Source: an uncultured Verrucomicrobiota bacterium (GTDB taxonomy: Bacteria > Verrucomicrobiota > Kiritimatiellia > JAAZAB01). Taken from it: a stretch of DNA of 64,000 nt. Positions 3,500 to 48,656 of this stretch are shown one piece after another (the first letter of the stretch is position 1; each line of letters opens with the position of its first letter). Location: assembly GCA_964650945.1 (NCBI GenBank), contig CAZYXU010000003.1:1754-65753 (forward strand), written 5' to 3'. Made by a program: the position numbers and the translations under genes. The notes beneath the pieces are model-generated. The model saw nothing but the letters and a program-made list of their open reading frames with translations, made no database searches and had not been told where the DNA came from.

Positions 3500-3512
3500 T
3501 ATGCGGTTCTTT

Positions 3513-5361: not shown

Positions 5362-5525
5362 GCGCGCTGTCCTTTCGCCATACGGCGCCGCGGCGCCGCT
5401 TTTACGATGCCGGTTTGCCGCGCCGGCGGCAGAAATAACCGGATACGCGCCATTATAGCGCCGCCGCCCCAAAAATCCATTTTTTTATTCTTGGCGTCCG
5501 GTGATTTTTCAGGTATGTATACGGT

Positions 5526-6587: not shown

Positions 6588-6590
6588 GCC

Positions 6591-7328
6591 ATGATTGAAA
6601 TCATGCTGGCGGAGGTGTTTGTCAAGGCGGCGGTCTTGTGCCTGCTGCTCTACCTGTTCGCCCGCGGGGAAGCGGATTTCAATTTCCGCAAGGTGTCCAT
6701 GGTGACCGCCGGCCTGACGCTGGGCTCGCTCCTGCTGGAAGGTCTGCTCAAGGATCATCTGGGCGTGTTTGTCCTGCTCCCGATCGTCATCCTGACCGTG
6801 CTGATCCTGATGCAGTTCTGCTGGGTTACATGGTGGCAGGCGCTCCTCGTGGCCCTGCCGTTTGTCGGCGTCAGCCTGGGGATGTCGCTGGTGACGGCCG
6901 ACCTGACCGCCAGGTCCGGCGCGGCGTTCACCCGTTCCCTGACCCGCAGCGCCGTCACCCGTGATGATATTGAAGAATTAAAGAAAATGCACGCCGCCAA
7001 CACGGATTTATCGTTTCTGGAAGCGCCGGCCGCGGACGCCGCTCCCGCGGAGCTTCCGGCGGTCGCGCCGGTTGCGGCGCCGGCATCCGCGCCGCCGCCC
7101 GTAACCGTTTCCCGGTTGCCGCCGCCGGCGCGGCCTTCCAGCCGCAGTGGCGATTTCACGCTCAAGGGCATTTCCAAGGGGCCGCGCGGGCGCCTGGCCA
7201 TCATCAACCAGGTCATGCTGGGAGAGGGCGAAACGCTCGATGGGGCGCAGGTGCTGCGGATCGATCAGGACCGCGTGATTTTGCGCCGGGCGGATGAAAT
7301 TATCACGCTGCAAATGGGCGGGGATTAA
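6591..7328 (+). CDS. Hypothetical membrane protein (3–4 TM helices plus a Pro/Ala-rich linker and a small C-terminal domain)
   Basis: Only 4 nt separate its start from the sppA stop. It has hydrophobic helices, a PAPAS-rich linker, and a C-terminal GxLxGQxVLRIDQDRVILR-like beta motif. No confident family assignment. Confidence 0.5.
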   Translation: MIEIMLAEVFVKAAVLCLLLYLFARGEADFNFRKVSMVTAGLTLGSLLLEGLLKDHLGVFVLLPIVILTVLILMQFCWVTWWQALLVALPFVGVSLGMSLVTADLTARSGAAFTRSLTRSAVTRDDIEELKKMHAANTDLSFLEAPAADAAPAELPAVAPVAAPASAPPPVTVSRLPPPARPSSRSGDFTLKGISKGPRGRLAIINQVMLGEGETLDGAQVLRIDQDRVILRRADEIITLQMGGD

Positions 7329-7387
7329 CCGCCTGAATTTTGCTTGTCAATTCAATGCCAAGCTGCGCGCAGAATTCGGGCTCCGGC

Positions 7388-7912
7388 TTATTCGCCGTCA
7401 ACCGCCGCCGGGCCGCTGTCGCTGTCGCCGTTTTTTGCCCGGCGCTCCGGCCGCCGTTGCCGGCCGTTGCCGGCATGGCGTTTTTGCATGGCTTGGCGCA
7501 ACTGCTGCCAGCGCGCCTGTTGTTCCGGCGTCAGCACGCCGCGGATGGCCAGGCGCGCCTGGGTTTGTTGCCGGGTAATTTCCGCGTGGAGCTTGGCCAG
7601 GCGCTCGCCGGCGGCCATGATCGCCTGTTCATCCGCGTCCGCGTCCGCGAACAGGTTTTCCAACTCGCTTTTGGCTTGAACCCGCGCGTTGTGCAGCGCC
7701 ATCAGTTTTTCGCGGTTGGCCTGTGTCTGTTGCTGCAAGGCGGCGGCCTGCGTGGGGCTGAGCTCGAGCGCCTTGGTCAGATGCTGCAACCTGGGCCGGC
7801 TGGATTCGCCGGCGCCGTCGGCGGGCCGGGGTTCGCCGGCCCAAAGCTCCGCCGCCAGCATGCCGGCCGCGATGGCCGCTGTTACTTGAAGTTTGCCGCC
7901 TGGCATTTTCAT
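7388..7912 (-). CDS. Periplasmic LTXXQ-motif protein (CpxP/Spy family stress chaperone-like)
   Basis: Signal peptide MKMPGGKLQVTAAIAAGMLAA. Two LTxxQ-type motifs are present (LSPTQAAALQQ and LTPEQQARWQQL) in helical, Gln/Arg-rich sequence. A GGGAG RBS precedes ATG 7912. The longer ORF starting at 7945 is rejected. Confidence 0.6.
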   Translation of the reverse strand: MKMPGGKLQVTAAIAAGMLAAELWAGEPRPADGAGESSRPRLQHLTKALELSPTQAAALQQQTQANREKLMALHNARVQAKSELENLFADADADEQAIMAAGERLAKLHAEITRQQTQARLAIRGVLTPEQQARWQQLRQAMQKRHAGNGRQRRPERRAKNGDSDSGPAAVDGE

Positions 7913-7987
7913 AATTATGACTCCCGAGAATGAATCCTTCATCAAGGTTAACGTGATGCGGCTGGTTTTATTGCATCCGCAAATTCA

Positions 7988-8015
7988 TTGACACGCCCGG
8001 GCTGGTTGTTAGAAT
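7988..8015 (+). promoter_or_regulatory. Sigma70-like promoter candidate (TTGACA-16-TAGAAT) upstream of the GNAT gene
   Basis: TTGACAcgcccgggctggttgtTAGAAT read directly from the sequence. The spacing is appropriate, and it sits ~105 nt upstream of ATG 8122. Confidence 0.3.
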
Positions 8016-8121
8016 CATACCGGAAATCGGCGGCGGACGGCGCGACTCGCCGCGGACACCGGCGTCTGCCGGAATAAGCGCCCGGCCGTACAGGCGCAGG
8101 CGGCCGGCCACCTGGTTTGTT

Positions 8122-8799
8122 ATGATGGTTATCCGTCCATATCAGTCCGCCGACCGCCCGGCGGTGCGCCGGATTTGTTGCGATACCGCGGATGCCGGCC
8201 GGCCGGTGGAAGCGTTTTTCAGCGATCGGGAACTGTTTGCCGACCTGCTGACGCGCTATTATACCGATTTTGAGCCGCAATCGCTGTGGGTGGCGGCGCC
8301 GGCCGGCCGGGCCGCCGGCTATCTGGCCGGAACCATGGATACGCGCCGGGCGCAGCGGATCATGGCGCGCCGGGTCTGGCCGGCGGCCGTCGGGCGGGCG
8401 CTATGCCGGGGCGCGCTGGGGAATGTTGCGCTCTGGCGTCTGGCATGGCGGAACCGGCGCCTGCACGCGGGGGCGCAACGGGCGGCGATCGTGGATTTGC
8501 AGGCATACCCGGCGCACCTGCATGTCAATCTTGACGCGGCGGCGCGCGGATGCGGGGCGGGCCGCCGCTTGTTGGCGGCGTTTGTTGACCAGGCGCGCGG
8601 CGCCGGCGTCCCCGGGCTGCATGCCTGGGTGCGGGCGGACAATGCCGCCGGCTTGCGGTTTTTCGCGGCCGCGGGCTTCCAGGAGCTGGGCCGCTGCCCG
8701 CTGCTGCGGCGGGAGGACGGGAATTTGTTGTATACGGTGGGGCTTGGTCTGGAGTTAACGGAACGGAATTATGCGTTGCTTTCAAAAGCCAGCTTTTGA
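8122..8799 (+). CDS. GNAT-family N-acetyltransferase
   Basis: An acetyl-CoA binding-like region HVNLDAAARGCGAGRRLLAAFVDQARGAG (R/Q-x-x-G-x-G/A motif) with overall GNAT topology. Confidence 0.7.
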   Translation: MMVIRPYQSADRPAVRRICCDTADAGRPVEAFFSDRELFADLLTRYYTDFEPQSLWVAAPAGRAAGYLAGTMDTRRAQRIMARRVWPAAVGRALCRGALGNVALWRLAWRNRRLHAGAQRAAIVDLQAYPAHLHVNLDAAARGCGAGRRLLAAFVDQARGAGVPGLHAWVRADNAAGLRFFAAAGFQELGRCPLLRREDGNLLYTVGLGLELTERNYALLSKASF

Positions 8800-9111
8800 A
8801 AGCAGTGTTCGGGGTTCAGTGTTCGGTGGAATAAAACTTTATGGAGTTATTCAAATTCTGACTCTTGAATTCCGGACTGTTGTAGCGCCACGGCGTGGCG
8901 CACTCCGGTTCCAACCGAGGCGAGCGCTGGCATAGCAAATGCCGAACGCCGTTCGGCTACTACATCCCGGAACATCCGCATTATTTTACCAATAGACTTT
9001 TGAAACTGGTTCGGTTTTTTATAAGGGCAAATTGCATGAATCGCGTTTTTAGAAGGTTTTAAGGTTTACGACTTTAAGGTTTTACGGCTGAACACCGAAC
9101 ACTGAACACTT
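8800..9111. repeat. MITE-like non-coding element. It has inverted terminal heptamer arrays (GTGTTCRG / CYGAACAC) flanked by a direct TTTGAAAG repeat, and two internal perfect palindromes
   Basis: Left end: TTTTGAAAG|CAGTGTTCGGGGTTCAGTGTTCGG. Right end: CTGAACACCGAACACTGAACACT|TTTGAAAG. Internal palindromes: GCGCCACGGCGTGGCGC and GCCGAACGCCGTTCGGC. No ORF with coding character. It contains the TTCAAATTCTGACTCTTGAATTCC module shared with the other copies. Confidence 0.55.
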
Positions 9112-10560
9112 TTGAAAGAGACTCTTATGCAAACGATTAAAAAAATTTACGGTTGCTTGCAGTCGCTCGCTTTCTGCCTATGCCTGGCTCAGGCCGGTTG
9201 CCTGGCGCCGCCAAGTCCGCCGCCGGCCGGGGCCGGGGAGGCGCTTGACGCCGCCAGCGCCGGCCGTCCGCCGGCGCCGTTGCTTTTGAATGATGACGAC
9301 CGCATCATGGTGCTGGCGCCGCACCCGGATGACGAGTCGCTGGCCGCCGGCGGGCTGATCCAGCAGGCCTTGGCGCGCAAGCTGCCGGTGAAGGTGGTCT
9401 TTTTCACTTATGGCGACAATAACGAATTGTCGTTCATGCTGTATCGCAAACGCCCCGTGGTGGCGCCGTCGGAAGTGCGGCGCATGGGCGAGGTGCGCCA
9501 TGCCGAGGCCCTGCGCGCCGCCGCCGTCCTGGGACTGGCGCCCGCCGACCTGGTTTTCCTGGGCTATCCCGATTTCGGCACGCTGGATATCTGGGAGCGG
9601 CACTGGGGAGATGCGCCGGCATTTTGCAGCATGCTCACCCGCGTGCGCGCCGTGAGTTATCCCGACGCTTTCCGGCCCGGCGCCGCCTATCGCGGCGAGG
9701 AGATTTTAAGGGATTTGGAAACGCTGCTGCGGGATTTCCGGCCGACGGCCCTGCTGGTATCGCACCCCGCGGATTTCAATCCCGACCACCGGGCGCTCTA
9801 CGCCTTCACCCGCGTGGCGCTTTGGAACCTGGCGCCGGAAATTCAGCCGCGGCTGCTGCCGTTCCTGGTGCATTTCAAACAATGGCCGGCCCCGCGCGGC
9901 TATCATCCGGATGAGGGCATGACCCCGCCGCCGGATTTGCTGGCGCCGATCCAGTGGCAGACGCTTCCGCTGCCCGCCGGCGTGGCGGCGGAAAAACGCC
10001 GCGCCTTGCAGGCGCATGCCTCCCAGTATGCCTACAGCGCCAAATTCCTGGATGCGTTCGCGCGCCGCAACGAAATCTTCGGCAACCTGCCGCCGGTGCG
10101 CCTGCGGCGCGCCGCCGCGCCGGCCAGCCTGGATGCGGACGTGTCCGCGGATGAAATCCCCGAGGTTTTGACCGGGGATGAACGCGCGGAATTTGTCGGC
10201 ATCGAAAAATATTCCGCCGCGATCAGCAACGGCACGCTGTGCCTGACGCTGGACTTCCGCCGCCCCCTGACCGGCGTGGTCCAGGCGTCGGTGTTTTGCT
10301 GCGGGTACCGCGCCGATACCCCGTTCGACCGGATGCCGAAAATCCAGGTGCGCATCGGCGCCACCCGGTCGGAGTGTTTGGATGGCGGCCGGCCCCTGCC
10401 GCGCGGGGCGGTGGCGATCGAACGCCACCTGCGCCGGCTGGAGGTGAAAATCCCGCTGGCGGTCGCCGGCAATCCCGACCGGGCGCTGGTCTGCGCCCGG
10501 ACCTACCTGGAAGAATTGCCGCTGGACTGGGCCGCCTGGCGGGTGCTGGAGTTTCAATGA
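9112..10560 (+). CDS. Lipoprotein-anchored PIG-L/LmbE-family N-acetylglucosaminyl deacetylase with a C-terminal extension of unknown function
   Basis: Lipobox LAQAGC after a signal peptide. IMVLAPHPDDESLAAGG is the PIG-L zinc-binding HPDDE signature. A ~250-aa C-terminal domain has no recognised motif. Confidence 0.75.
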   Translation: MKETLMQTIKKIYGCLQSLAFCLCLAQAGCLAPPSPPPAGAGEALDAASAGRPPAPLLLNDDDRIMVLAPHPDDESLAAGGLIQQALARKLPVKVVFFTYGDNNELSFMLYRKRPVVAPSEVRRMGEVRHAEALRAAAVLGLAPADLVFLGYPDFGTLDIWERHWGDAPAFCSMLTRVRAVSYPDAFRPGAAYRGEEILRDLETLLRDFRPTALLVSHPADFNPDHRALYAFTRVALWNLAPEIQPRLLPFLVHFKQWPAPRGYHPDEGMTPPPDLLAPIQWQTLPLPAGVAAEKRRALQAHASQYAYSAKFLDAFARRNEIFGNLPPVRLRRAAAPASLDADVSADEIPEVLTGDERAEFVGIEKYSAAISNGTLCLTLDFRRPLTGVVQASVFCCGYRADTPFDRMPKIQVRIGATRSECLDGGRPLPRGAVAIERHLRRLEVKIPLAVAGNPDRALVCARTYLEELPLDWAAWRVLEFQ

Positions 10561-11819
10561 TGCATGCGATTGTTCTCTCCATCGGCGACGAGTTGGTCCT
10601 GGGCCAGGTGGCGGATACCAATGCCGGCTGGCTCAGCGCCCGGCTCGCGGAATGCGGCATCATGACCGTCTGGCACCAGGCCGTGCCGGATGACCGGGCG
10701 GCCATCGCCGCCGCGCTGCGCCGCGCGGCGGATGCGGCCGAATTGATTATCGTTTCCGGCGGATTGGGGCCGACCCCGGACGACCTGACCCGCCCCGCCC
10801 TGGCGGATGCCCTCGGGGCGCCCCTGGAATTACATGCGCCGGCGCGGGAGCAAATCGAACGGTTCTTCCGCGACCGCGGCTGGGTCATGTCGGAATCCAA
10901 TTTGACGCAAGCTATGCTGCCGCGCGGCGCGGAATCGCTGCCCAATCCGGCCGGCACCGCCCCGGGCATCTGCGCGCGGCTGGGGCCGGCGGACGTGTTT
11001 GTCGTGCCCGGCGTGCCGCGTGAAATGCGCGCGCTGTTTAATTTGCATATTGCGCCGCGCCTGCGCGCGCAATCCGGCCGGGTAATTCTGACCGCCCGGT
11101 TGGACACCTTCGGGTTGGGCGAATCGAAGGTGGCGGATAAGCTCGGGGACTTGATGCGCCGCGGCCGCAACCCCCTGGTGGGCACGACGGTCGCGGACGG
11201 CATTGTCACCGTGCGCGTGCGTGCGGATTTTCCGGATGCGGAGGCGGCGCGCGCCGCGCTTGACCGGACGGTCCGGGATGCGCGCCAATGCCTGGGGCCG
11301 GCGGTCTTCAGCGACGGCACAGTCTCCCTGGCGGAGGTGGTCGGCGATCTTTTGCGCCGCCGGCAATGGCGGTTGGCCGCGGCGGAAAGCTGCACCGGCG
11401 GCTTGCTGGGAAAAATGCTGACCGATGCCCCCGGCGCCAGCGATTTTTACCTGGGCGGCTGGGTGGTTTACGATAATGCCATGAAAACCAGCCAGTTGGG
11501 CGTGCCGGAATCCATGCTGCAAACCGCGGGCGCCGTCAGCGAGGCGGTGGTGCGGCATCTGGCCGAGGCGGCGCTCCAACGCGCCGGGGCGGATTGCGCC
11601 CTGGCCGTTTCCGGGATCGCCGGACCGGCCGGCGGCACGCCGGACAAGCCGGTGGGCACGATCTGGATCGCGCTGGGCGAGCGCTGCGGCGGCCGGATTG
11701 TCACGCAGGCGGAACGCTGGCTCTGGCCGGGCGAGCGCGCGCTGGTGCGCGACCGCGCGGCCAAAGCCGCCTTGAATATGCTGCGCTTGCGCCTGCTGGA
11801 AACTTGTCCGCCGCCATGA
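10557..11819 (+). CDS. cinA: CinA-family protein (competence/damage-inducible; NMN deamidase PncC-like C-terminal domain plus MocF-like N-terminal domain)
   Basis: MMHAIVLSIGDELVLGQVADTNAGWL (MoCF-biosynthesis-like N-terminus) and a C-terminal CinA domain (AAAESCTGGLLG). Its start ATG overlaps the previous gene's stop (ATGA), which indicates translational coupling. Confidence 0.85.
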   Translation: MMHAIVLSIGDELVLGQVADTNAGWLSARLAECGIMTVWHQAVPDDRAAIAAALRRAADAAELIIVSGGLGPTPDDLTRPALADALGAPLELHAPAREQIERFFRDRGWVMSESNLTQAMLPRGAESLPNPAGTAPGICARLGPADVFVVPGVPREMRALFNLHIAPRLRAQSGRVILTARLDTFGLGESKVADKLGDLMRRGRNPLVGTTVADGIVTVRVRADFPDAEAARAALDRTVRDARQCLGPAVFSDGTVSLAEVVGDLLRRRQWRLAAAESCTGGLLGKMLTDAPGASDFYLGGWVVYDNAMKTSQLGVPESMLQTAGAVSEAVVRHLAEAALQRAGADCALAVSGIAGPAGGTPDKPVGTIWIALGERCGGRIVTQAERWLWPGERALVRDRAAKAALNMLRLRLLETCPPP

Positions 11820-11960: not shown

Positions 11961-12017
11961 GTGAGTTTTGAAATATGCTCTGATGCATGCTTTGCGATTA
12001 TTTGGCAGGCGATCAAA

Positions 12018-15000
12018 ATGCACAATGCCAAGTGGATTGGTTCAATCGGGTTGGCAGCGGGTTTATGGCTGACGCTGGGCTCGGGCTTAAGCCGCGCCCA
12101 GGCGCTGGTCATCCCCGCCGCCGGGCTCCGCGCCGGGGGCAACCCGCCGGGGATGATCGGCGGCCCCGGAACGCCCATCGTCGGCTGGGAGGAAATCGCG
12201 GGCTTGCCGCTCGGCGAGCAATTTCTGGGGGCGGGAGTCTTGAGCGGCGCGGTCTATGCCGTGGGCGGGATGAATGCGACTTATTCCGCCCCGCTCTATA
12301 CCAACGTCTTCCGGTATGACGGCGCCGCCTGGACGCCGGCGCCGGCGCTCCCCGGCGCCGCTTATACCCTGGCCGTGGCATGCTACAGCAATGCGCTGTA
12401 TACCCTGGGCGGCTTTGCCGGCTCCGGCACCCGTACGAATGTTTACAAGTTCGATGGCGCCGGCTGGTCCGAGGTGGCGGGGTTGCCGGCCGGCCGGGGC
12501 GCCGGCGCGGCCGCGGTCTGGAATGACGCCTTGTATTATATCGGCGGCCGCAATACCGCCGGCGCCGCCCAGACGAATGTTTACCGCTATAACGGCGCAA
12601 CCTGGAGCCAGGTGCGCGGCCTGCCCGCCCCGCGCGGCTGCCTGACCGCCAATGTCTGGAATGGCGCGCTGTATGCCGTCGGGGGCAGTGATGCGACGAA
12701 CGTTTACCAATACGACGGCACGAACTGGACGGAAACGGCGGGCTTGCCGGTCATCATGGGCTATGCGGCTTCCGGCGTCCTGGACGACGGGCTCCATGTT
12801 TTCGGCGGGGAGAGCGGCGCCGGGCAGACCAATGTGTATCGGTTTGACGGCACGAACTGGACGGCGGTTCCCGGCCTGCCCACCGCGCGCTTTGGCGTGG
12901 GCGGCGCCGTCCTCAGCAACGTCTTGTATTCCATCGGCGGGTTCGTCAGCGGTGTCTCCACCAATGTGTACCGCTCCGTGCTGACCGATTACCTGGGCGT
13001 GACGCCGTCCAACGGCGCCATGGCCGGCGGGTATGAAGTCGTGATCACCGGGACCAACCTCTCCGATGGCGCCGATGTCACCAATGTCACATTGTGCGGC
13101 GTCACCGCCGCGGTTGCCCGGGTGCATGGCGGCACCCAGATCGTGGCGATCGCCGGCGCCGGCCCGCCCGGTTTGGGCGACGTGCGCGTGTTTTCCGCAA
13201 GTTTTGGAGAATCGGTCCGCACCAATGCTTTTACATATATGGGCGCGGACATGCTCTGCCTGGGAACCAATGGCGCGGCTATCCCGAATGCGGCGCACGC
13301 CGCGGCGGAGAATGGGACGGATTTCGGCGAGCTGCCCTGGGGCGGCGCCCGCACGAATTATCTGGTGATCACTAACTCCGGCAACCAGGATTTGACGATC
13401 AACGGGATCGGCGTGCATGGCGCCGGGGCCGCTGCGTTCAAGGTTGTGTCGCCGCCGGCGCTGGTGCCGCCCGGCGGCGCATCGAATTTCGCGGCGGTGT
13501 TCGCGCCGCCCGGTCCGGGTGCGTATCCGGCAGCCTTCGGCATCGCCAATAATTCATCCAATCCCTTGTATGTGATCTACCTGGCGGGCGTAGGTGTAAA
13601 ACGTACGCAGACGTTATCGTTTTCAGCGGCAGATCACCTGGCGGTCACGGCTTCCGTGGCGTTGACGGCTTCGGCTTCATCCGGGTTGCCGGTAAGTTTT
13701 TCGGCGATGCCCCCCGGACGCATCACGGGCGGCAATATCCTCTCTTTCAACGGGACGGGCCAGGTGACTGTCGCGGCGGCGCAGGCCGGCAATGTCGATT
13801 GGCACGCCGCCGCGGCAACGCAAACAGTCCGGGTGACGCAGTATGGCCCATCCGCCGGCCGGCTGGCGGTGGAATTAACGCCGGCCGGCGGATCATGGAC
13901 CATGGTCAGCGCGCCGGCCGCGTATGTCGGGCCCTGGTCGGGAATCGGGCGCCTGGCTGCCATCCCGGCGCCGCCGGGCGGCTACCGCGTCGCCTGGGGC
14001 GCCCTGGCCGGTTATGCGCCGCCCCTGCCGCATTCCGGCGAACTGGCGCCGGGCAGCGCGTTGGTGTTCACGGGAATATACTTGCAGGTTACGGATGATC
14101 TGGCGCCGCCGCCGGGCGTGTCGGCGACGGCCGGAGTCTATACGAATTTGGTGCGGGTTTCCTGGCAGGGCGTGCCTGGCGCCGCGATTTATGAAATACG
14201 CCGCCACACCGCGAACGATCCGGCCCGCTCAAGCTGGCTGGCGGAAGTGCCGGCGGGCGCCGGAGCGCAAGCTGATGATCCCACGCCTGCAACTTATGCT
14301 TACGATGACTACGACGTTTTGCCCAACGTTTCCAGCTACTACTGGGTGCGGGCGAAAACGGCGGCGCGCATCAGCCGGTTCAGCCGGGCCGGCATGGGCT
14401 ATGCCCGGTTGGACCCCGGCGCCATGCAGGGCGTTTCAGACCTGGCGGCGGACGACCTGGTGTTTCTGCCGGTGAATCTCCAGCCCGATTCCGCCGCCGG
14501 CACAGTGTCGTTCCGACTGGCCAATTACGGGCCGGATGCCGTGAACGGCGCGGCGGTAGCGCTGGATTTCTACATGGGCGCGGCCGGCGGGGAGCTGCTG
14601 TGGATGGGCGGGGATCGCCGGAATTTCACGCTGGCGTCCGGCGCGGAAGAGTTGGTGGTGCTGGCCGCCGCCGCCCGGGGCGGCATAATCGCGCGCGGCG
14701 ATCTGCCGCATGATTCCCCGTTAACCGTGCGCGTGCGGGTGCGCCACCTGACCGCCCGGCGCGATCCCAATCCGCTGAATGACACGGCCGCCGCCGCCGG
14801 AACGGCGCGCATCCGCGCGGCCGGCGCGAGTTCCAGAGGACGCGGATTGACGGATTACGACGGCGACGGCAAGTCGGATTTGGCGGTGCTGAGCGCCGAT
14901 CGCAGCTTGTTCGTCTTCCTGGCGACCGGCGACCGGTTTGCGCAGATGCATTGGGAGGCTGGAGCCGCAGGCCCCGGTTTGTATCATGCGGCTCCCGGCG

Positions 15001-15701
15001 ATTACGACGGCGACGGCATCCTGGACCTGGGACTGTTCGATGAGGCGGCCGGAATATTTTATGTGCGCTATTCCAGCACGGGGATGGCCGCATCGGCAAC
15101 GCTGGGCGGGCCGGGTTGCCGCCCGGCCGTGGCGGATTACGACGGCGACGGCCGCAGCGATCCGGCCGTGTACCAGGCGGCGGAAGGTTATTGGACGGGT
15201 TGGTTGTCGGCGGAAAATTACTCGCAAAAGTATACCTATGCCGGCGGGCCGCGCTATGCGCCCGTGCCGGCGGATTACGATGGAGACGGGCTGGCCGATC
15301 CGGTGGCCTATTCCAGGGTCATCGGCGCCTGGGCGGGCCGGCTCTCCGGACTGGGATATCAGCCCGTCGCCTTGCTTTCCGGCGTGCCGGATGCGCAGGC
15401 CGTGCCGGGCGATTACGACGGGGACGGCCTGGCGGACCTGGCGCTATACCAGGCTGCCGGCGGACAATGGCTGGTGCGTCTCTCCAATCACGGCGCGTGG
15501 GATGTTTCCGCCGCGCTGGTCCTGGGCGGCCCCGGTTACGTTCCCGTGCCGGGCGATTACGACGGCGACGGTCTGTCCGATCCCGCGGTTTACAGCGCCG
15601 CGGCCGGCGGGGTTTGGCGGGGATTGTTGTCTGCGCAGGGATACGCTCCGGAAATTGAAGGCTATTTCGGCGGTATGGATTACGAGCCGATGTTTGAATA
15701 A
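12018..15701 (+). CDS. Large secreted protein: N-terminal Kelch-repeat beta-propeller, IPT/TIG domain, and C-terminal FG-GAP/VCBS-type (integrin-alpha-like) repeats
   Basis: Signal peptide MHNAKWIGSIGLAAGLWLTLGSGLSRAQA. Six or more Kelch-like repeats are present (…ALYxxGG…TNVYxYDGxxW…). The TIG-like segment is GGYEVVITGTNLSDGADVTNVTLCGV. Seven DYDGDG(K/R/L)SD…Y repeats sit near the C-terminus. The start was moved from 11961 to the Met preceding the signal peptide. Confidence 0.75.
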   Translation: MHNAKWIGSIGLAAGLWLTLGSGLSRAQALVIPAAGLRAGGNPPGMIGGPGTPIVGWEEIAGLPLGEQFLGAGVLSGAVYAVGGMNATYSAPLYTNVFRYDGAAWTPAPALPGAAYTLAVACYSNALYTLGGFAGSGTRTNVYKFDGAGWSEVAGLPAGRGAGAAAVWNDALYYIGGRNTAGAAQTNVYRYNGATWSQVRGLPAPRGCLTANVWNGALYAVGGSDATNVYQYDGTNWTETAGLPVIMGYAASGVLDDGLHVFGGESGAGQTNVYRFDGTNWTAVPGLPTARFGVGGAVLSNVLYSIGGFVSGVSTNVYRSVLTDYLGVTPSNGAMAGGYEVVITGTNLSDGADVTNVTLCGVTAAVARVHGGTQIVAIAGAGPPGLGDVRVFSASFGESVRTNAFTYMGADMLCLGTNGAAIPNAAHAAAENGTDFGELPWGGARTNYLVITNSGNQDLTINGIGVHGAGAAAFKVVSPPALVPPGGASNFAAVFAPPGPGAYPAAFGIANNSSNPLYVIYLAGVGVKRTQTLSFSAADHLAVTASVALTASASSGLPVSFSAMPPGRITGGNILSFNGTGQVTVAAAQAGNVDWHAAAATQTVRVTQYGPSAGRLAVELTPAGGSWTMVSAPAAYVGPWSGIGRLAAIPAPPGGYRVAWGALAGYAPPLPHSGELAPGSALVFTGIYLQVTDDLAPPPGVSATAGVYTNLVRVSWQGVPGAAIYEIRRHTANDPARSSWLAEVPAGAGAQADDPTPATYAYDDYDVLPNVSSYYWVRAKTAARISRFSRAGMGYARLDPGAMQGVSDLAADDLVFLPVNLQPDSAAGTVSFRLANYGPDAVNGAAVALDFYMGAAGGELLWMGGDRRNFTLASGAEELVVLAAAARGGIIARGDLPHDSPLTVRVRVRHLTARRDPNPLNDTAAAAGTARIRAAGASSRGRGLTDYDGDGKSDLAVLSADRSLFVFLATGDRFAQMHWEAGAAGPGLYHAAPGDYDGDGILDLGLFDEAAGIFYVRYSSTGMAASATLGGPGCRPAVADYDGDGRSDPAVYQAAEGYWTGWLSAENYSQKYTYAGGPRYAPVPADYDGDGLADPVAYSRVIGAWAGRLSGLGYQPVALLSGVPDAQAVPGDYDGDGLADLALYQAAGGQWLVRLSNHGAWDVSAALVLGGPGYVPVPGDYDGDGLSDPAVYSAAAGGVWRGLLSAQGYAPEIEGYFGGMDYEPMFE

Positions 15702-15828: not shown

Positions 15829-16914
15829 CTAGCTCCGCAACGGCAATTGCACTTCCCGGCGGGTTTTCCACGACCGGTAAATGGCCAGGATCAATTCTAC
15901 GGCCCGGCGTGCCTCCGGGCCGGGCACCATGGGCTCGGTGTTCCGGCGGATGGCGCGGCAAAAATCCCGCACTTGCAGCGTATGCCCGTCGGACGACAGC
16001 GCGGTGTGGTCGCTGGCCAATTTGCCGTAGGCGTCTCCGCCGGTTTTCCGCCGGTTGAATTTTTCGCCGAGGTTGACCGGCTGCGGCTCGTGCTTGCCCT
16101 TGATCAGGCGGGCGGTCCAGCATTTGACCGGGCCGTCCCCCAGGATAATCGAGCCGCGTTCGCCGTGGATCATCGTTTTGCAGCCCATGCCGGGCACCAC
16201 GGAGGTGGTGCCGATGATATTGCCCAGGGCGCCGTTTTTGAAGCGGACGACGGAGACGGAGGTGTCCTCAACCTCAATCTGGCGCACCAGGCGGTCGGTG
16301 TAGGTGAAGACGCTCGCGGCATCGCCCATCAGCCAGAGCAGCAGGTCAATGCCATGCACGGCCTGGTTCATCAAGGCGCCGCCGCCGTCGAGTTTCCAGG
16401 TGCCGCGCCAGCCGGCGGAACGGAAATAGGCGGGGGACCGGTAGTATTTCTGGTGGCAGTCGCCCAGCACCAGCTTGCCCAGCAGGCCCCGCCGCAGCGC
16501 CTGCTTGGCGAGCAGGCTGTCGGTGTCGGTGCGTTTCTGGAAAATACAGCCCAGCTTGACGCCGGCCCGGTCGCAGGCTTCGATCATGCGGTCCATGCTG
16601 GCCAGCGTGATATCCAGGGGCTTTTCGCTGAGCACGTGCCGGCCGGCTTTGGCGGCGTCAATCGCGCCCTGGTGGTGCAGTCCGGAAGGCGTGCAGACGC
16701 TGACCGCCTGGATGCCGGGCTCCCGGCGCAGCATTTCACGGTGGCTGGTGTAGAAGCGGGCCTTGGATCCATGCTCGCGCAAAACCTTTTCGCGGCGCGG
16801 GTCAATATCGCAGACGGCAAGCAATTCCGCTTCCGGGGCGTTGTTGACGGCCTTGGCGTGATGCGGGCCGATGACCCCGTAACCGATGATTCCCCAGCCG
16901 ATTTTTCCGCTCAT
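15829..16914 (-). CDS. Gfo/Idh/MocA-family NAD(P)-dependent oxidoreductase
   Basis: N-terminal Rossmann motif GIIGYGVIGPHHAKA, the EKP motif (VLSEKPLDITL), and a C-terminal GFO_IDH_MocA_C-like domain. Confidence 0.85.
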   Translation of the reverse strand: MSGKIGWGIIGYGVIGPHHAKAVNNAPEAELLAVCDIDPRREKVLREHGSKARFYTSHREMLRREPGIQAVSVCTPSGLHHQGAIDAAKAGRHVLSEKPLDITLASMDRMIEACDRAGVKLGCIFQKRTDTDSLLAKQALRRGLLGKLVLGDCHQKYYRSPAYFRSAGWRGTWKLDGGGALMNQAVHGIDLLLWLMGDAASVFTYTDRLVRQIEVEDTSVSVVRFKNGALGNIIGTTSVVPGMGCKTMIHGERGSIILGDGPVKCWTARLIKGKHEPQPVNLGEKFNRRKTGGDAYGKLASDHTALSSDGHTLQVRDFCRAIRRNTEPMVPGPEARRAVELILAIYRSWKTRREVQLPLRS

Positions 16915-17139
16915 GATTTCCCTTGCATGTGTTGTGATTGCCTTAAATCAGCGGCGGCGGGCCGCGGCCGGGACGGCCCGGCGGTGGTTGCCGCTCAGGC
17001 CGTATTGTACCGCCAGCCGGCGCGGCATGTAATGCGACCAAAAATAGTTTAAAATCAGGATATTGTCAACATCCCAGAAATACTGTTTTTTTACTTGCAA
17101 AGCCGGGGGGGATTGCATACAGTATTGGCAGTATTTCCG

Positions 17140-17216
17140 GGGGGAGTAGCTCAATTGGTTAGAGTCCCAGACTGTCGATCTGGTTGTTGCGGGTTCGAGT
17201 CCCGTCTCTCCCGCCA
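17140..17216 (+). tRNA. tRNA-Asp (anticodon GUC)
   Basis: Cloverleaf folded by hand. Acceptor GGGGGAG/CTCTCCC, D-arm GCTC…GAGT, anticodon stem CCAGA/TCTGG with loop CTGTCGA (anticodon GTC), T-arm GCGGG-TTCGAGT-CCCGT, discriminator G, and an encoded CCA. Confidence 0.9.
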
Positions 17217-17377
17217 CGGATTGCCGGTCCGACACCCATGCGCCCGCCCCAGCGCGCACGGCATCCGCCGGCAGCAAATACGGCGCTGGCAGCCTTGGCG
17301 CGCGTCTTTGACCGGTCGGATTTTTCTGCTGCAAGCCAGGCTTGGCGCTGCGCCGGCAGGCTGGCGCCGGCATTCAT

Positions 17378-17453
17378 GGCGATGTAGCTCAGTTGGTAGA
17401 GCGGAGGACTCATAAGCCTTAGGTCCGGGGTTCGAATCCCCGCGTCGCCACCA
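17378..17453 (+). tRNA. tRNA-Met (anticodon CAU; elongator Met versus lysidine-modified Ile2 cannot be distinguished)
   Basis: Acceptor GGCGATG/CGTCGCC, D-arm GCTC-AGTTGGTA-GAGC, anticodon loop CTCATAA, T-arm CGGGG-TTCGAAT-CCCCG, and an encoded CCA. One A·G mismatch at 31·39 in the anticodon stem. Confidence 0.85.
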
Positions 17454-17478
17454 TATCGAATATGCTTGAGGTAGATTT

Positions 17479-18354
17479 GTGACCACCAAAGACAAGCCCG
17501 AATCCAACGGCAATAATCATCCCCTGATCAATCAGCTTGTGCAACTGCAGGAGCTGATTCTGGTGCATTCCGAGCAGGAAGCATCCATGTCCGATAAATA
17601 TACTTCGCAGTTGGACAGCTCCATCAATGCCTTGCGCGCTTCCCTGCCGGATGAAACCCAGCAGCTCTTTCAGAAAATCGAAAAACGCGATGTGCTGGCG
17701 ATCGTGCCGATTTCCAATAATGTCTGCTCGGGCTGCGGCCTCTCCCTGCCGGTCAGTTTGATTTATGCCGTGCGCGCGGGCGAAAAGCTCTTCCAGTGCC
17801 CCAATTGCGCGCGCATCCTGTATTATCCCGAGGTGCGCTCGCGGCGCATCAGCAAGAAGGCCGGCGGGCGCGCCATGCCGCGGCGCACCGGCATTGCCCG
17901 GTTCACCTCGCAGTCGCTGATGCTGCCGGAACTGCAATCCACGGAGCGCGACAAGGTCATCGAGGAAATGGCCATGCGCATGGAGTTGGAAGGCTTTGTG
18001 GATAACGGCGCCAAGCTGATTACCGCCGCCTTGGAACGCGAATCCATCATCAATACGGCCGTGGAGCATGGGCTGGCCTTCCCGCACGTGCGCGGGGTGG
18101 AAGGCGGCGGGTTGACCCTCGCGCTGGGAATCAACCGCAAGGGCGTGCGCTTCGATTCCGCCGGACGCGGCTTGACCCATATCGTCTTTTTTATCGTCAT
18201 CCCCACCGCCGCCAGCGTGTTTTACCTGCGGCTGTTGTCCGGCTTGACCCAGACCTTCTTCAAAAAAGACGCGCGCGAAAAATTGCTGGCCGCGCAAACC
18301 CCGGACGAATTATGGAGCGTGCTGGTGAAAACCACGCGCTACACCATCAAGTAG
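17479..18354 (+). CDS. Fusion protein: N-terminal coiled-coil plus C4 zinc-ribbon (COG1579-like), C-terminal PTS EIIA type-2 (EIIA-Ntr/PtsN-like) domain
   Basis: CSGCG…(19 aa)…CPNC zinc ribbon after a predicted helical segment. The C-terminus has GLAFPHVRGVEGGGLTLALGI…THIVFFIV, the PTS_EIIA_2 signature with the conserved phosphorylatable His in the (A/L)(I/F)PH context. Confidence 0.7.
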   Translation: MTTKDKPESNGNNHPLINQLVQLQELILVHSEQEASMSDKYTSQLDSSINALRASLPDETQQLFQKIEKRDVLAIVPISNNVCSGCGLSLPVSLIYAVRAGEKLFQCPNCARILYYPEVRSRRISKKAGGRAMPRRTGIARFTSQSLMLPELQSTERDKVIEEMAMRMELEGFVDNGAKLITAALERESIINTAVEHGLAFPHVRGVEGGGLTLALGINRKGVRFDSAGRGLTHIVFFIVIPTAASVFYLRLLSGLTQTFFKKDAREKLLAAQTPDELWSVLVKTTRYTIK

Positions 18355-18366
18355 CTTCCGCGCGGT

Positions 18367-18759
18367 TCAATCGAAGTAGATGTCCACCGTGTAGCTGTAG
18401 CTGTCGAACCAGCGCACGCGCATCACGGTGAGCTTGCCTTCCAGAATGTCCACGTCATCGCGATAGCTGCGGCTGCCGTGGCGTTCCTGGATGACCACGC
18501 GGTGCACCCCGGGATTCAGATCGTAAGCCTCGTAGTCATAGGTGCTCACCCGGTTGGATTCAATCCCGTTGATGAACACCTCCAGGCGGTCGCCGGTGTG
18601 GTTGTCCACGATCAGGCTTCCCAGGCCGGCCGGCGGCTTGTGGCTGAAGGAGTCGTCTTCGCAGCCGGCGGCCATGAAGGCCAGGGCGGCGGCGAGCATG
18701 GCCGCGGCGGCCTTTAAAATCCGGCCGGCGGCGGGTGGGGTGGCGCAGGTTTGCTTCAT
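18367..18759 (-). CDS. Small lipoprotein, hypothetical
   Basis: Signal peptide plus lipobox MAAGC. An AGGAG RBS lies 9 nt upstream of ATG 18759. The track's longer start (18804) would overlap trkA. Confidence 0.55.
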   Translation of the reverse strand: MKQTCATPPAAGRILKAAAAMLAAALAFMAAGCEDDSFSHKPPAGLGSLIVDNHTGDRLEVFINGIESNRVSTYDYEAYDLNPGVHRVVIQERHGSRSYRDDVDILEGKLTVMRVRWFDSYSYTVDIYFD

Positions 18760-18800
18760 ATGCGTGCTCCTGTCCGGGGTTGGCTGCCGTCCTCCCGCCG

Positions 18801-19472
18801 TCATGGCAGGTCTTTTTCAAGTTGGCGCAATTTTTCATCGGCGCCGAAAACCACCAGGGTATCGCCCAGTTCGATCATGTCGTCCGCGTTGGGGATGATG
18901 ATCGTCTCCTGGGCGCCATCCGGCTGGCGGGCGCGGCGCAATACCAGAATGGTGACGCCGAAATCATGGCGGATATTGGACTCGGCGATAGTCTTGCCGA
19001 TGAAACTCAACGGCGCGCTGATTTCCAGCACGCTGGCCCCGGCGGAAACCTCCATGTAATCCAGCACGGAAGGCGAAACCAGGGTGCGCGCCAGGCGGGT
19101 GGCCATGTCGCGGTCGGGGAAAATAATGCGGTCGGCGCCGACGCGTTTCAGCACCTTGCCGTGCACTTCGCCGGAAGCCTTGGCCACGACCCAGGGGATT
19201 TTCATCTCCTTCAAGGTGAGAGTGGCGAGAATGCTGCTTTCGAGGTCGGAACCGACGGCGACGACGGCAATGTCGCAATCCTGAAATCCGGCGGCTTCCA
19301 GGGCGCCTTCCTCGGTGGCGTCGCCTTCCATAGCCTTGGCCACGATGCCGGCCATGTCATCCACCACATCGCGGTCGCGGTCCAGCAGGATGACTTCCAC
19401 GCCCCGCTCCGCCAGCGCCGATGCCAGGCTTGCCCCAAAACGGCCGCCGCCAACAATGCCGATTCTTTTCAA
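18801..19472 (-). CDS. trkA: Trk system potassium uptake protein TrkA (single RCK/TrkA-N plus TrkA-C)
   Basis: GIVGGGRFGASLASALAERGVEVILLDRD Rossmann NAD-binding motif and a C-terminal TrkA_C domain. Confidence 0.85.
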   Translation of the reverse strand: MKRIGIVGGGRFGASLASALAERGVEVILLDRDRDVVDDMAGIVAKAMEGDATEEGALEAAGFQDCDIAVVAVGSDLESSILATLTLKEMKIPWVVAKASGEVHGKVLKRVGADRIIFPDRDMATRLARTLVSPSVLDYMEVSAGASVLEISAPLSFIGKTIAESNIRHDFGVTILVLRRARQPDGAQETIIIPNADDMIELGDTLVVFGADEKLRQLEKDLP

Positions 19473-19649
19473 ATTACACCTTTGCGTGCCGGTGGCCGCC
19501 GCGGCGGCGGCCGGATTTTTGCCGCATTATCGGGCTTTTGGACAATGATGGCCGGAACGGGCGCTGAAATCAAGTTAAAAGTCAGGTTAACCGCCGGCAT
19601 TCCCAGGCGGCTGCCCCCGGCCTGATCCGCCGCCGGCAACCTTGATCGC

Positions 19650-21026
19650 TTATCCCACCATGACATCCTCTTCCGGGTGGCGCACCAGGAAGCGGACGCT
19701 TTTGATGCTTACCAGCATGGCAATGGTGAGCGGGCCGGCGCGGCCGATGAACATGCAGCCGGCCATCAAAGCCAGGCCGGCGCGGGAGAGCAGGGGGATG
19801 ATGCCGGTGGAAAGACCGACGGTGCCGAAGGCCGAGACGGTGTCAAACATCAGAAAATCGGTGGAAAACACCCCCGTTTGGAGGCGGGCATGTTCGGTGA
19901 GCAGGAGCAGGCCGTAAAAACCGGTGAGGAGCAGGGCGCTGAGCATGAAAATCGCCAGGGCTTCCTTGGTGTTGCGGACGGACACGATCCGGTTCAACAA
20001 CACCGAGTCCCGGCGGCCGCGGATCATGGTCATGGTGGCGGCCAGCAGGACGGCGGCGGTAGTGGTTTTAATGCCGCCGGCGGTGGAACCGGGCGATCCG
20101 CCGATGAACATCAGGACCATGTTAAGGAAACGCGTGGCCGGCCGGACCTCCGCCAGTTCCACCAGGTTAAAACCGGCCGTGCGCGCCGTAATCGAATGAA
20201 AAATCGCATCCATGATTTTGTCCGGCCAGGGGAGCGCGGCCAGGCTCTGCCGCCACTCCAGCGCCGCGAAGCCCAGGGCGCCGCCTGCCAGGAGCAGCGC
20301 GGAGGAAAGCAAAACGATTTTGGTGTGCAGCATCAGATGGCCGCGTTGCAGGCGGTTGCGCCGCCAGAATTGGTAGAGGCTGATATCGTAAAGCGCTATA
20401 AATCCCAGGCCGCCGATGACAATCAGCGCCGCCATCACCGCCAGGATGACCGGATCCTGGCGATAATTCGTCAAACTGTCATGAAACAGGCTGAAGCCGG
20501 CGTTGCAGTAGGCGCTGACGGCGTGGAAAATACCGTTGAAAACGGCGCGCGGGATGGATTGCGCATGCGCGGCGTAAAAACGCCAGGCGAGCGCCGCCGC
20601 GCCGCCGCCTTCCAAAAGCAGCGTGAACTGGATGGACCGGCGCAAAAGCATTCTGAGATTGCGCGCTTCGTCCAGGCGCAGCACGTCCATCAACGCCAAC
20701 TCGCCCTGCATACTCATGTGCCGCCCGGCCAGACTCAGCAAAAAAGTGCCCAGCAACATGAATCCCATGCCGCCGGCCTGGATCAGGCACAGCAGGATGA
20801 TTTGGCCGAAGATGGTGTAATGTTCCGGGACGATCACCACGGCGTGGCCGGTGACGCAGACGGCGCTGGTGGCCATGAAGAAAGCCGTCAGCGGATCGGG
20901 CAGCGATATGCCGCGGTTGGCCCAGGGCAGCATCAGGCATAACGTGCCCAGCAAGATCGCCAGCCCCATGGCTTTGACCACAAACCATTGCGGCTTCGCT
21001 CTTTCTTCTTGCTTTATGGCAGGCAT
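19650..21026 (-). CDS. trkH: Trk/Ktr-family potassium transporter TrkH (membrane subunit)
   Basis: Multiple M1-P-M2 repeats with selectivity-filter-like GFS/GGS motifs (SAVCVTG, AYCNAGFSL, TARTAGFN, TVSAFGTVGLSTG). ATG at 21026 was chosen. The track start 21056 is a TTG. Confidence 0.85.
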   Translation of the reverse strand: MPAIKQEERAKPQWFVVKAMGLAILLGTLCLMLPWANRGISLPDPLTAFFMATSAVCVTGHAVVIVPEHYTIFGQIILLCLIQAGGMGFMLLGTFLLSLAGRHMSMQGELALMDVLRLDEARNLRMLLRRSIQFTLLLEGGGAAALAWRFYAAHAQSIPRAVFNGIFHAVSAYCNAGFSLFHDSLTNYRQDPVILAVMAALIVIGGLGFIALYDISLYQFWRRNRLQRGHLMLHTKIVLLSSALLLAGGALGFAALEWRQSLAALPWPDKIMDAIFHSITARTAGFNLVELAEVRPATRFLNMVLMFIGGSPGSTAGGIKTTTAAVLLAATMTMIRGRRDSVLLNRIVSVRNTKEALAIFMLSALLLTGFYGLLLLTEHARLQTGVFSTDFLMFDTVSAFGTVGLSTGIIPLLSRAGLALMAGCMFIGRAGPLTIAMLVSIKSVRFLVRHPEEDVMVG

Positions 21027-21075
21027 GCTTCCTATAGTATTGCCTTTGACAGCCAATAGTCAAGGTTATCCGGCG

Positions 21076-21831
21076 ATGTTGGAGGCGGTGCGCATAGTTC
21101 TAACCCGGCCGATTTACAGCGGCAATATCGGCGCAGTCTGCCGGGTGATGGCCAATATGGGGCTTTCCGACCTGGTGCTTGCGGGCGCCGGGATCGCCGA
21201 TCCGGTGGAGGCCCGCAAGATGGCCTGCGGAGCCCGGGATGTCCTGGAAGCCTGCCGCCAGGTCGGCGATCTGGCCGCCGCCGTGGCCGATTGCACGCTG
21301 GTGATCGGCGCAACCGCCCGGGAAGGCTTGTACCGCCAGCATTGCCGGACGCCGCGGGAATGGGCGCCGGAAATTCTGGCGGCGGCCCAATCCGGGCGCG
21401 TGGCGCTGGTGTTTGGCCCGGAGGACAATGGCCTGAACAACAACGAGATTGCGCTTTGCACACGGCTCATGCGCATTCCTTCGTCGCCGGCGTATGCGTC
21501 GTTGAACCTCTCGCACGCGGTGATGATTTGCGCCTATGAGCTGTTCGTGGCGGCCGGCGTGTTTACGCTGCCGGCGGAGAAATCGGTCGAGGCGCTGTCC
21601 GCCAAGAAAGAGCGGATGTTTGCTTTGTGGGAGCGGATGCTGTTGAAAATCGGTTTCATGGAGCCGGTGATGGCGGCCCACATGATGCAGGGGGTGCGGC
21701 GGATTTTTACCCGCGGGCGCCTGTCGGACGACGATGTGCGGATTTTAATGGGCATTGCCCGGCAGGTGGAATGGTATGCCGACAAACGCAAACAATCCCG
21801 GGCGGCTCACGGCGCGGCAGACGGCGCCTGA
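21076..21831 (+). CDS. SpoU/TrmH-class RNA 2'-O-methyltransferase (TrmJ-like)
   Basis: IVLTRPIYSGNIGAVCRVMANMG (SPOUT N-terminal motif), LVFGPEDNGL, and IPSSPAYASLNLSHAVMICAYE (SPOUT knot motifs). The ~90-aa C-terminal extension is typical of TrmJ. Confidence 0.8.
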   Translation: MLEAVRIVLTRPIYSGNIGAVCRVMANMGLSDLVLAGAGIADPVEARKMACGARDVLEACRQVGDLAAAVADCTLVIGATAREGLYRQHCRTPREWAPEILAAAQSGRVALVFGPEDNGLNNNEIALCTRLMRIPSSPAYASLNLSHAVMICAYELFVAAGVFTLPAEKSVEALSAKKERMFALWERMLLKIGFMEPVMAAHMMQGVRRIFTRGRLSDDDVRILMGIARQVEWYADKRKQSRAAHGAADGA

Positions 21832-48592: not shown

Positions 48593-48656
48593 CTTGGCTT
48601 TTCCCCCGCGTTCTGCTAAATTCAGACGACATACCCATAGCACAATTGCCGCTTGA

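Follow-up and report, generated by a model that had tools for sequence, protein, structure and literature searches.

What does an EIIA domain do when it is joined to a zinc ribbon and encoded beside potassium transporter genes? The question is raised by a gene in a 64,000-nt stretch of contig CAZYXU010000003.1 (GCA_964650945.1), hereafter called the window, from an uncultured bacterium of the Kiritimatiellia (Verrucomicrobiota). The gene, at 17479-18354, encodes a fusion protein in which short helices and a C4 zinc ribbon are followed by an EIIA type-2 domain of the phosphoenolpyruvate (PEP)-dependent phosphotransferase system (PTS). The nearest loci in species genomes (93% amino-acid identity) belong to Kiritimatiellia metagenome-assembled genomes (MAGs) from an anaerobic membrane bioreactor. 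What is new here is an EIIA-Ntr-like regulator with a strictly conserved zinc-ribbon partner module, which forms a large conserved family and has a permuted sibling family. We regard the chances as roughly even that the fusion protein is a cytoplasmic regulatory signalling protein of the Kiritimatiellia and Lentisphaeria, sugar-independent and similar to the nitrogen-related PTS (PTS-Ntr), whose best-supported targets are RCK-domain cation transport systems.

The open reading frame (ORF) is a genuine gene. Its GTG start is supported by a GAGG Shine-Dalgarno-like motif ~8 nt upstream and by homologues of 290-297 aa that span 100% of the fusion protein. Pfam detected Zn_ribbon_9 (PF02591) at aa 82-114 with 43.6 bits (cut-off 29.1) and PTS_EIIA_2 (PF00359) at aa 148-282 with 75.8 bits (cut-off 27; model positions 8-141 of 144). 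Both scores exceed the gathering cut-offs and bear out the domain fusion proposed in a preliminary description of this DNA. An AlphaFold model built on a 31-sequence alignment (A1) was confident (pLDDT 88.5, pTM 0.82). DSSP placed helices at aa 14-36, 42-55 and 58-70 of the model, and the alpha/beta EIIA domain extends to the C-terminus. The linker between ribbon and EIIA domain was modelled with residue-block mean pLDDT values of 57-87, with the minimum at aa 121-130.

A family profile was compared with all PDB sequences. Its C-terminal half matched the PtsN/EIIA-Ntr structures 2A0J, 4GQX, 3URR and 1A6J (E 6e-16 to 3e-11). Its N-terminal half matched Chlamydia CT398/CdsZ (E 1.8e-15), Helicobacter HP0958/FlgZ (2.6e-12) and MSMEG_4306 (8.5e-06), with the helices and ribbon aligning to CT398 residues 159-253 only. 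Foldseek ranked the same four PtsN structures first (target-normalised TM 0.81-0.86, rmsd ~2.2 Å; TM 0.76-0.86 with 1A3A included), placing the domain in the EIIA-Mtl/Ntr fold. It also aligned the fusion protein with CT398 (4ILO) over 76 columns at an rmsd of 1.7 Å and 33% identity. Because the PDB profile and Foldseek agree, the N-terminal module is identified as a truncated COG1579 unit, a zinc ribbon with flanking helices that lacks the long coiled-coil hairpin. The homology to HP0958 given in the preliminary description therefore stands, and is even stronger to CT398/CdsZ. Its zinc ribbon stands as well, but its coiled coil does not, since three short helices are found rather than the ~150-aa hairpin of COG1579.

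The GLAFPHVRG motif of the EIIA domain contains His203 (codon 18085-18087), which aligns with the phospho-acceptor His of E. coli PtsN (His73; His65 in EIIA-Mtl). By this alignment it is the phosphorylatable His that had been predicted. The residues invariant in 81 species-level orthologues are C83, C86, C107, C110 and R112 of the ribbon module, R187, E188, H203 and R205 around the phospho-site, and Q24, Y249 and W279. The invariant phospho-site residues and the four cysteines therefore argue for a working phospho-site and a working zinc site. The EIIA domain had also been called complete. This holds for the fold and the phospho-His but not for the second active-site His (PtsN His120, EIIA-Mtl His111), which is Tyr249 in the fusion protein and Tyr in 81/81 orthologues. 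Free EIIA paralogues encoded at related loci retain this second His when aligned with E. coli PtsN. In EIIA-Mtl the second His is required for transfer to EIIB and is not known to be needed for taking phosphate from HPr. If so, its absence from the fusion protein is consistent with a terminal acceptor.

The family is large. A word-indexed protein search returned 2,874 relatives at E <= 1e-5, and all of the 120 best homologues share the two-domain architecture, so conservation of the fusion itself, which the preliminary description had singled out as a check, is clear. An exhaustive search of 50%-identity representatives gave 44 matches at E <= 1e-30, ~30 of them full-length (270-297 aa), down to 33% identity. 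A scan of species-representative genomes with a 9-sequence alignment found at least 533 encoded relatives; the patterns used lie in the EIIA domain, and some of these relatives may be EIIA-only. The best 80 species loci are labelled as Kiritimatiellia/Kiritimatiellae, Lentisphaerae/Victivallales or Verrucomicrobiota MAGs, and one distant family member was binned as Thermodesulfobacteriota. A search with the N-terminal 127 aa alone against a 5.8-billion-protein collection returned one partial protein. A full-text literature search found no paper mentioning the combination of zinc ribbon and EIIA.

In other lineages, the two modules also occur in the opposite order, as circular permutants. Three relatives, P0188, P0190 and P0233, each aligned with the query in two separate stretches and have the order EIIA_2, helices, Zn_ribbon_9. 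When the N-terminal 130 residues of the window protein were moved behind its EIIA domain, the rearranged sequence could be aligned collinearly from end to end to P0190 (E 3e-33; 273 columns with 4 gaps, 26% identity). The permuted proteins, too, have Tyr at the position of the second His. The occurrence of the same two-module unit in both orders suggests that the modules work together. Further permuted relatives are P0273-P0275, and permuted loci are L088, L090 and L093-L095. In the AT-rich genome of L088, the permuted gene lies 3 kb upstream of rpoN-hpf-HPr on the same strand, and no ORF of >=50 aa is found at the usual ptsN position between hpf and HPr. This rpoN-proximal context is not repeated in L090/L095 or L093/L094.

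Is the fusion protein linked to potassium uptake? In the window, an RCK subunit (TrkA_N + TrkA_C) and a TrkH/KtrB membrane subunit are encoded in one operon, as in a Trk/Ktr system. The RCK subunit, with 223 aa and a single RCK unit, is KtrA-sized, whereas E. coli TrkA has 458 aa, and NCBIfam TrkA models match it over half length only. The TrkH-family protein scores 310 bits against TIGR00933, slightly under the cut-off of 331, and its gene has an alternative ATG start at 21026. The preliminary description placed the fusion gene head to head with this operon. The arrangement is in fact convergent: the fusion gene on the plus strand and trkH-trkA on the minus strand meet tail to tail, and the immediate 3' neighbour of the fusion gene is a small lipoprotein-like ORF, not trkA. 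These two reading frames end 12 bp apart, stop codon to stop codon.

We compared the neighbourhoods of 80 species loci (L008-L087), each with as much as 10 kb of flanking sequence per side if the contig was long enough, by tblastn, ARAGORN, phmmer and a clustering of adjacent ORFs. Three groups emerged when the fusion proteins were placed in a neighbour-joining tree. Group III is the clade of the window, here also called the close clade, with 26 loci at >=66% identity. The convergent block of small ORF-trkA-trkH-spoU-nadD-rsfS was found in 18 of 25 informative Group III loci. In Group II, which is mixed, L072 and L081 carry trkH-trkA-fusion in co-directional order with a 94-bp gap, and they are separate from the window's group in the tree. 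The conserved-looking trk linkage of the preliminary description is thus found in most close relatives and in these two loci, and it fails in others, as set out below.

Other cation transport genes recur around the family. In Group I (50-60% identity), the fusion gene usually has beside it a free EIIA_2 gene of about 150-165 aa, oriented divergently and 40-250 bp upstream. Of the 54 more distant loci (L034-L087), 21 have such a gene within 250 bp. At 9 loci it is followed on the same strand by a gene for a 557-aa Na_H_Exchanger of the CPA2 (Kef-like) family (e.g. L055 7572-9759; L063 7702-9833), whose C-terminal ~130 aa match no family. The pairing of free EIIA with a CPA2 antiporter recalls the PtsN-YcgO interaction of E. 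coli. Model scores of the free paralogue are 104-110 bits for fruA-IIA and 67-81 bits for PtsN, and it is a better PtsN counterpart than the fusion protein. Genes for a prepilin-like protein and a Ser/Thr kinase usually lie downstream of the Group I fusion gene. One speculation from gene order is that the divergent pair, free EIIA (associated with the CPA2 exchanger) and fusion protein (associated with Trk), might exert reciprocal control over K+ efflux and uptake. At L098, which encodes a 38%-identical orthologue, an RCK-domain K+ channel gene precedes the fusion gene by 1.6 kb, and the cyclic di-AMP synthase gene cdaA is 5 kb away. There (5185-8861, 13638-14804) one strand carries the RCK K+ channel, a cyclic-nucleotide (cNMP)-binding protein, hypA, a cobW/hypB-like gene and then the fusion gene, with cdaA downstream. 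No relevant neighbour genes were seen at the distant loci L096 and L097.

Database relatives of the EIIA domain include Na_H_Exchanger proteins fused to two EIIA_2 domains. Three such proteins, P0169 (L091 3136-5856), P0172 and P0244, carry the two domains in tandem and reach 906 aa. Cation transport genes stand in ~4 of ~20 independent contexts compared with ~0.5 expected, a rough, back-of-the-envelope estimate made post hoc; the expectation assumes roughly 10-15 cation-transport genes per genome and six neighbour positions per context. The recurring neighbourhoods, the Na_H_Exchanger::EIIA_2 fusions and the precedent of E. coli PtsN support cation homeostasis as the output, and a link of the fusion protein to monovalent-cation homeostasis is plausible.

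Where would the phosphoryl group come from? HPr-family genes were present in three loci (L085, L088 and L091), in L091 at 2 kb downstream of the Na_H_Exchanger::EIIA_2 x2 gene. In L085 (Group II), 7827-8516 on the minus strand encodes a 229-aa HPr::AMPK1_CBM/CBM48 glycogen-binding fusion, 1.5 kb upstream of the fusion gene and beside a KaiC-like ATPase gene. This is an unusual architecture for a PTS carrier. For Kiritimatiella glycovorans, a rudimentary regulatory PTS that senses PEP/pyruvate and signals to pH and sodium homeostasis has been proposed independently (Spring et al. 2016, PMC5148204). The invariant phospho-site signature, together with the HPr genes and free EIIA of related genomes, supports phospho-signalling by the fusion protein, and such signalling fits this proposal.

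Based on these observations, we propose that an HPr/NPr-type carrier, its gene lying elsewhere in the genome, would phosphorylate the EIIA domain on His203, with the phosphoryl group derived from PEP via Enzyme I (EI). The domain would be a terminal acceptor like PtsN, its phosphorylation state altering which partners are bound. This role is suggested by the loss of the second active-site His and the lack of an EIIB/EIIC partner nearby. The truncated CdsZ/FlgZ-type module of three helices and a C4 zinc ribbon may provide a second, permanently attached surface for protein or RNA. By analogy with E. coli PtsN, the targets may be RCK-domain monovalent-cation transport systems, here the adjacent TrkA-TrkH.

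Several points weigh against this proposal. The trkAH genes are absent beside the fusion gene in 7 of 25 close loci (L014, L015, L018, L022, L028, L031 and L033), several of which keep the small ORF or spoU, and in 52 of the 54 more distant loci. The adjacency has been lost repeatedly in the window clade, and much of it there is inherited gene order, because it is part of a long syntenic block. The fusion and trk genes cannot share an operon since they are convergent. The unvarying close-clade neighbour is not trkAH but a tRNA-Met gene, which shares the strand of the fusion gene and directly precedes it, at 2-290 bp, in 23/23 informative close-clade loci and in L053. The cation-gene excess noted above is an after-the-fact estimate. 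No HPr, EI or other PTS gene was found in the 64-kb window, in agreement with the preliminary description; HPr, EI, HprK and RpoN were sought by six-frame phmmer and motif scans and by Pfam of 22 proteins, which covers part of the ORFs. Large ORFs of EI or RpoN size (374-2110, 2159-3616, 10239-11819 and others) proved to be neither. One 50%-cluster representative, P0128, has Phe instead of the phospho-acceptor His. The fusion protein also falls in no NCBIfam equivalog, its EIIA domain scoring under every cut-off: 63 bits for fruA-IIA, the best NCBIfam match (cut-off 103.5), and 40.4 and 24.8 bits for the PtsN models TIGR01419 (138.7) and NF008145 (221). The CdsZ model gave 37.5 bits (cut-off 275).

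If the Trk adjacency is meaningless inherited order, the fusion protein could instead be a CdsZ/FlgZ under PEP/PTS control, its ribbon module binding sigma-54 (RpoN), RNA polymerase or RNA and its EIIA domain acting as the sensor switch. We consider this possible, if somewhat unlikely. The N-terminal module is homologous to CT398, itself from the Planctomycetes-Verrucomicrobia-Chlamydiae (PVC) group, and to HP0958, whose ribbon cysteines are required for RpoN accumulation (PMC3372290) and which binds flaA mRNA (PMC5947703). The organism uses sigma-54, as the activator reported in the preliminary description is indeed of the NtrC family with a GAFTGA motif (Table 1). The position of the permuted L088 gene near rpoN-hpf-HPr, without ptsN at the canonical place, the invariable tRNA-Met linkage in the close clade and the basic linker after the ribbon also favour this explanation; Pereira et al. 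2011 drew tRNA-Met beside flgZ homologues in several phyla. However, the sigma-54 link of the fusion protein is weak, and so is the earlier claim that the fusion joins two sigma-54-associated modules. CT398 binds RpoN via a long coiled coil at the N-terminus (PMC5947703, citing Barta 2015) that is missing here, COG1579 proteins are also common in bacteria without RpoN (PMC3372290, PMC5947703), no locus of the forward domain order has rpoN near the fusion gene, and the activator is 30 kb away. No RpoN box was found within 10 kb in any of 87 loci scanned (L001-L087), where the HPr fusion of L085 was the one HPr match, and the window contains no match to the sigma-54 promoter consensus TGGCAC-N5-TTGCW. 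The fusion gene is not in an rpoN-hpf-ptsN-npr cluster; the sole rpoN-hpf-HPr neighbourhood is that of L088, with the permuted form, and the other permuted loci do not share it. The recurring cation-transporter neighbours would also be left unexplained. A broader idea is that the fusion in both orders acts as a 'Rosetta stone', indicating that EIIA-Ntr and FlgZ/CdsZ-type zinc-ribbon proteins are generally physical partners. This generalisation is unlikely. If true, the regulatory PTS would relay its phosphorylation state by way of the zinc-ribbon module to sigma-54, RNA polymerase or RNA, which would help to explain why ptsN is in the rpoN operon and would give the COG1579 family a function.

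Two further explanations concern the EIIA domain itself. It could be a degenerate fold outside any phosphorelay, a constitutive protein or ligand binder in which the His is structural or part of a binding site. The Tyr at the second catalytic position in all 81 orthologues and in the permuted forms, the scores under all NCBIfam EIIA/PtsN cut-offs and the lack of a PTS partner in the window are compatible with this, and EIIA-like folds without phosphotransfer are known, with anion-exchanger cytoplasmic domains among the Foldseek matches. We nevertheless judge it quite improbable, as the whole phospho-site signature RE...T...AFPHxRG is invariant, beyond the His alone, and related genomes have HPr-family genes as well as a free EIIA that keeps both His residues. 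PtsN itself acts by partner binding, with no phospho-acceptor identified among its targets (review PMC13104625), so the missing second His is in keeping with a terminal acceptor. Finally, databases (PGAP and JGI) name the fusion proteins "PTS sugar transporter subunit IIA", and the best NCBIfam match is to the IIA domain of the fruA subfamily, which would make them IIA subunits of a fructose/mannitol-type sugar-transporting PTS. This is scarcely credible. The fruA-IIA score is well short of its cut-off, no EIIB or EIIC family occurs among the Pfam-annotated genes of L001-L007 and L088-L098, the His on which EIIA-Mtl depends for passing phosphate to EIIB is lacking, PtsN proteins are the closest relatives of solved structure, and the PTS described for Kiritimatiella is rudimentary and regulatory only (PMC5148204). 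The sugar-transporter annotation is almost certainly misleading.

The proposed role as a regulatory signalling protein acting on cation transport is best viewed against known systems. The fusion protein resembles PtsN/EIIA-Ntr (E. coli; 1A6J, 2A0J, 3URR, 4GQX) in fold, in the position of the phospho-His, in the RE..ST..G.A.PH motif and in having no sugar-transport partners nearby. Unphosphorylated E. coli PtsN binds TrkA, YcgO and KdpD (PMC13104625, PMC11808508), and the K+/cation transporters to which the fusion neighbourhoods point match these targets. The fusion protein differs from PtsN in being only 16-25% identical and under the PtsN equivalog cut-offs, in having Tyr for His120 and an extra ~125-aa N-terminal zinc-ribbon module, and in lying outside the rpoN operon. 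With the COG1579/DUF164 proteins (CT398/CdsZ 4ILO, HP0958/FlgZ 3NA7, MSMEG_4306 5Y05) it shares the C4 ribbon PF02591 with two CxxC pairs and flanking helices. It lacks their ~150-aa antiparallel coiled coil, having only ~57 aa of helices before the ribbon. The ribbon is C-terminal in those proteins, whereas here it is internal and followed by a 176-aa extension. The Na_H_Exchanger::EIIA_2 x2 proteins likewise carry EIIA_2 as an attached regulatory switch, but their partner is a transporter rather than a soluble zinc ribbon. In PRD-type regulators, an EIIA domain is attached as a switch to a DNA- or RNA-binding regulator with PTS regulation domains (PRDs). The regulatory PTS proposed for K. 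glycovorans belongs to the same phylum-level lineage, and its proposed signalling to pH and sodium homeostasis fits the pair of free EIIA and CPA2 exchanger; the main text of PMC5148204 contains no mention of a zinc-ribbon::EIIA fusion.

What is known of the outputs of the widespread regulatory PTS comes mainly from a handful of Proteobacteria. Proteins of the COG1579 (FlgZ/CdsZ) family are also widespread, and their molecular mechanism was still called "mysterious" in a recent comparative study (PMC8469502). The covalent joining of both modules in both orders provides a concrete, testable hypothesis of cooperation, and the neighbourhoods suggest that the PVC superphylum shares the link from EIIA to K+/cation transport seen in E. 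coli. Should the K+ link be inherited synteny only, what remains is a domain architecture of uncultured bacteria that had not been annotated.

Table 1. Features of the window around the fusion gene, domains of the fusion protein and genes at the sigma-54 activator (positions in the window)
Feature	Position	Strand	Evidence and remarks
tRNA-Asp (GTC)	17140-17216	+	ARAGORN; Rfam tRNA 66 bits; upstream also in closest relatives L009, L010, L023
tRNA-Met (CAT)	17378-17453	+	ARAGORN; Rfam 70 bits; 25 bp upstream of fusion gene, same strand
Fusion gene, 291 aa, GTG start	17479-18354	+	ORF, Pfam, homologue architecture, AlphaFold model
N-terminal helical region, aa 14-70	17518-17688	+	DSSP on model; LxQLQEL motif conserved, Q24 invariant
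C4 zinc ribbon, aa 75-115 (Cys83, Cys86, Cys107, Cys110)	17701-17823	+	Zn_ribbon_9; Foldseek to 4ILO
Basic low-confidence linker, aa 116-137, RSRRISKKAGGRAMPRR	17824-17889	+	pLDDT; variable in 31-sequence alignment
EIIA type-2 domain, aa 138-291	17890-18351	+	Pfam; PDB profile; Foldseek; E. coli PtsN alignment
Small lipoprotein-like ORF, 145 aa by longest ORF	18367-18804	-	ORF; last gene of trk strand
trkA/ktrA-like gene, 223 aa, single RCK unit	18801-19472	-	Pfam TrkA_N + TrkA_C, 96 and 47 bits
Membrane subunit of a trkH-family K+ transporter, longest ORF 468 aa	19650-21056	-	Pfam TrkH 197 bits
Sensor kinase (SBP_bac_3 + PAS + HisKA_2)	44751-47144	-	
M48 peptidase with tetratricopeptide (TPR) repeats	47255-48886	-	
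NtrC-family sigma-54 activator (response regulator)	48657-50009	+	GAFTGA motif

The small ORF carries a lipobox-like ...FMAAGC, read from its sequence only, and has no Pfam or NCBIfam match. In its longest reading it overlaps the trkA stop by 4 bp. A homologue of it adjoins the fusion gene in most close-clade loci, even in the trkAH-less L014, L015, L018, L022 and L031. Upstream, the tRNA-Met and fusion genes are probably co-transcribed, as suggested by the short gap, the shared strand and the lack of evident room for a separate promoter. In other clades, tRNA-Phe or tRNA-Ser genes lie within ~1.2 kb upstream of the fusion gene on either strand. An RNA-related function was not read from the tRNA-Met linkage, which we keep as a bare observation since tRNA genes are common rearrangement boundaries. 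A scan of 16800-21400 for sigma-70 promoters and terminators gave nothing decisive for the fusion gene, and an Rfam scan found the two tRNAs only, with no riboswitch near trkH.

At the sigma-54 activator, the minus-strand ORF 47255-48886 encodes the M48 peptidase; the activator is the plus-strand ORF 48657-50009. The 5' ends of the two genes overlap by ~230 bp when the longest ORFs are taken, and one of the starts is probably further downstream. Elsewhere in the window, 11961-15701 on the plus strand encodes a 1,246-aa secreted-looking protein in whose translation recurring Kelch-like units of the 'NVYRYDG' type and, at the C-terminal end, FG-GAP/VCBS-like 'DYDGDG' repeats were recognised by eye.

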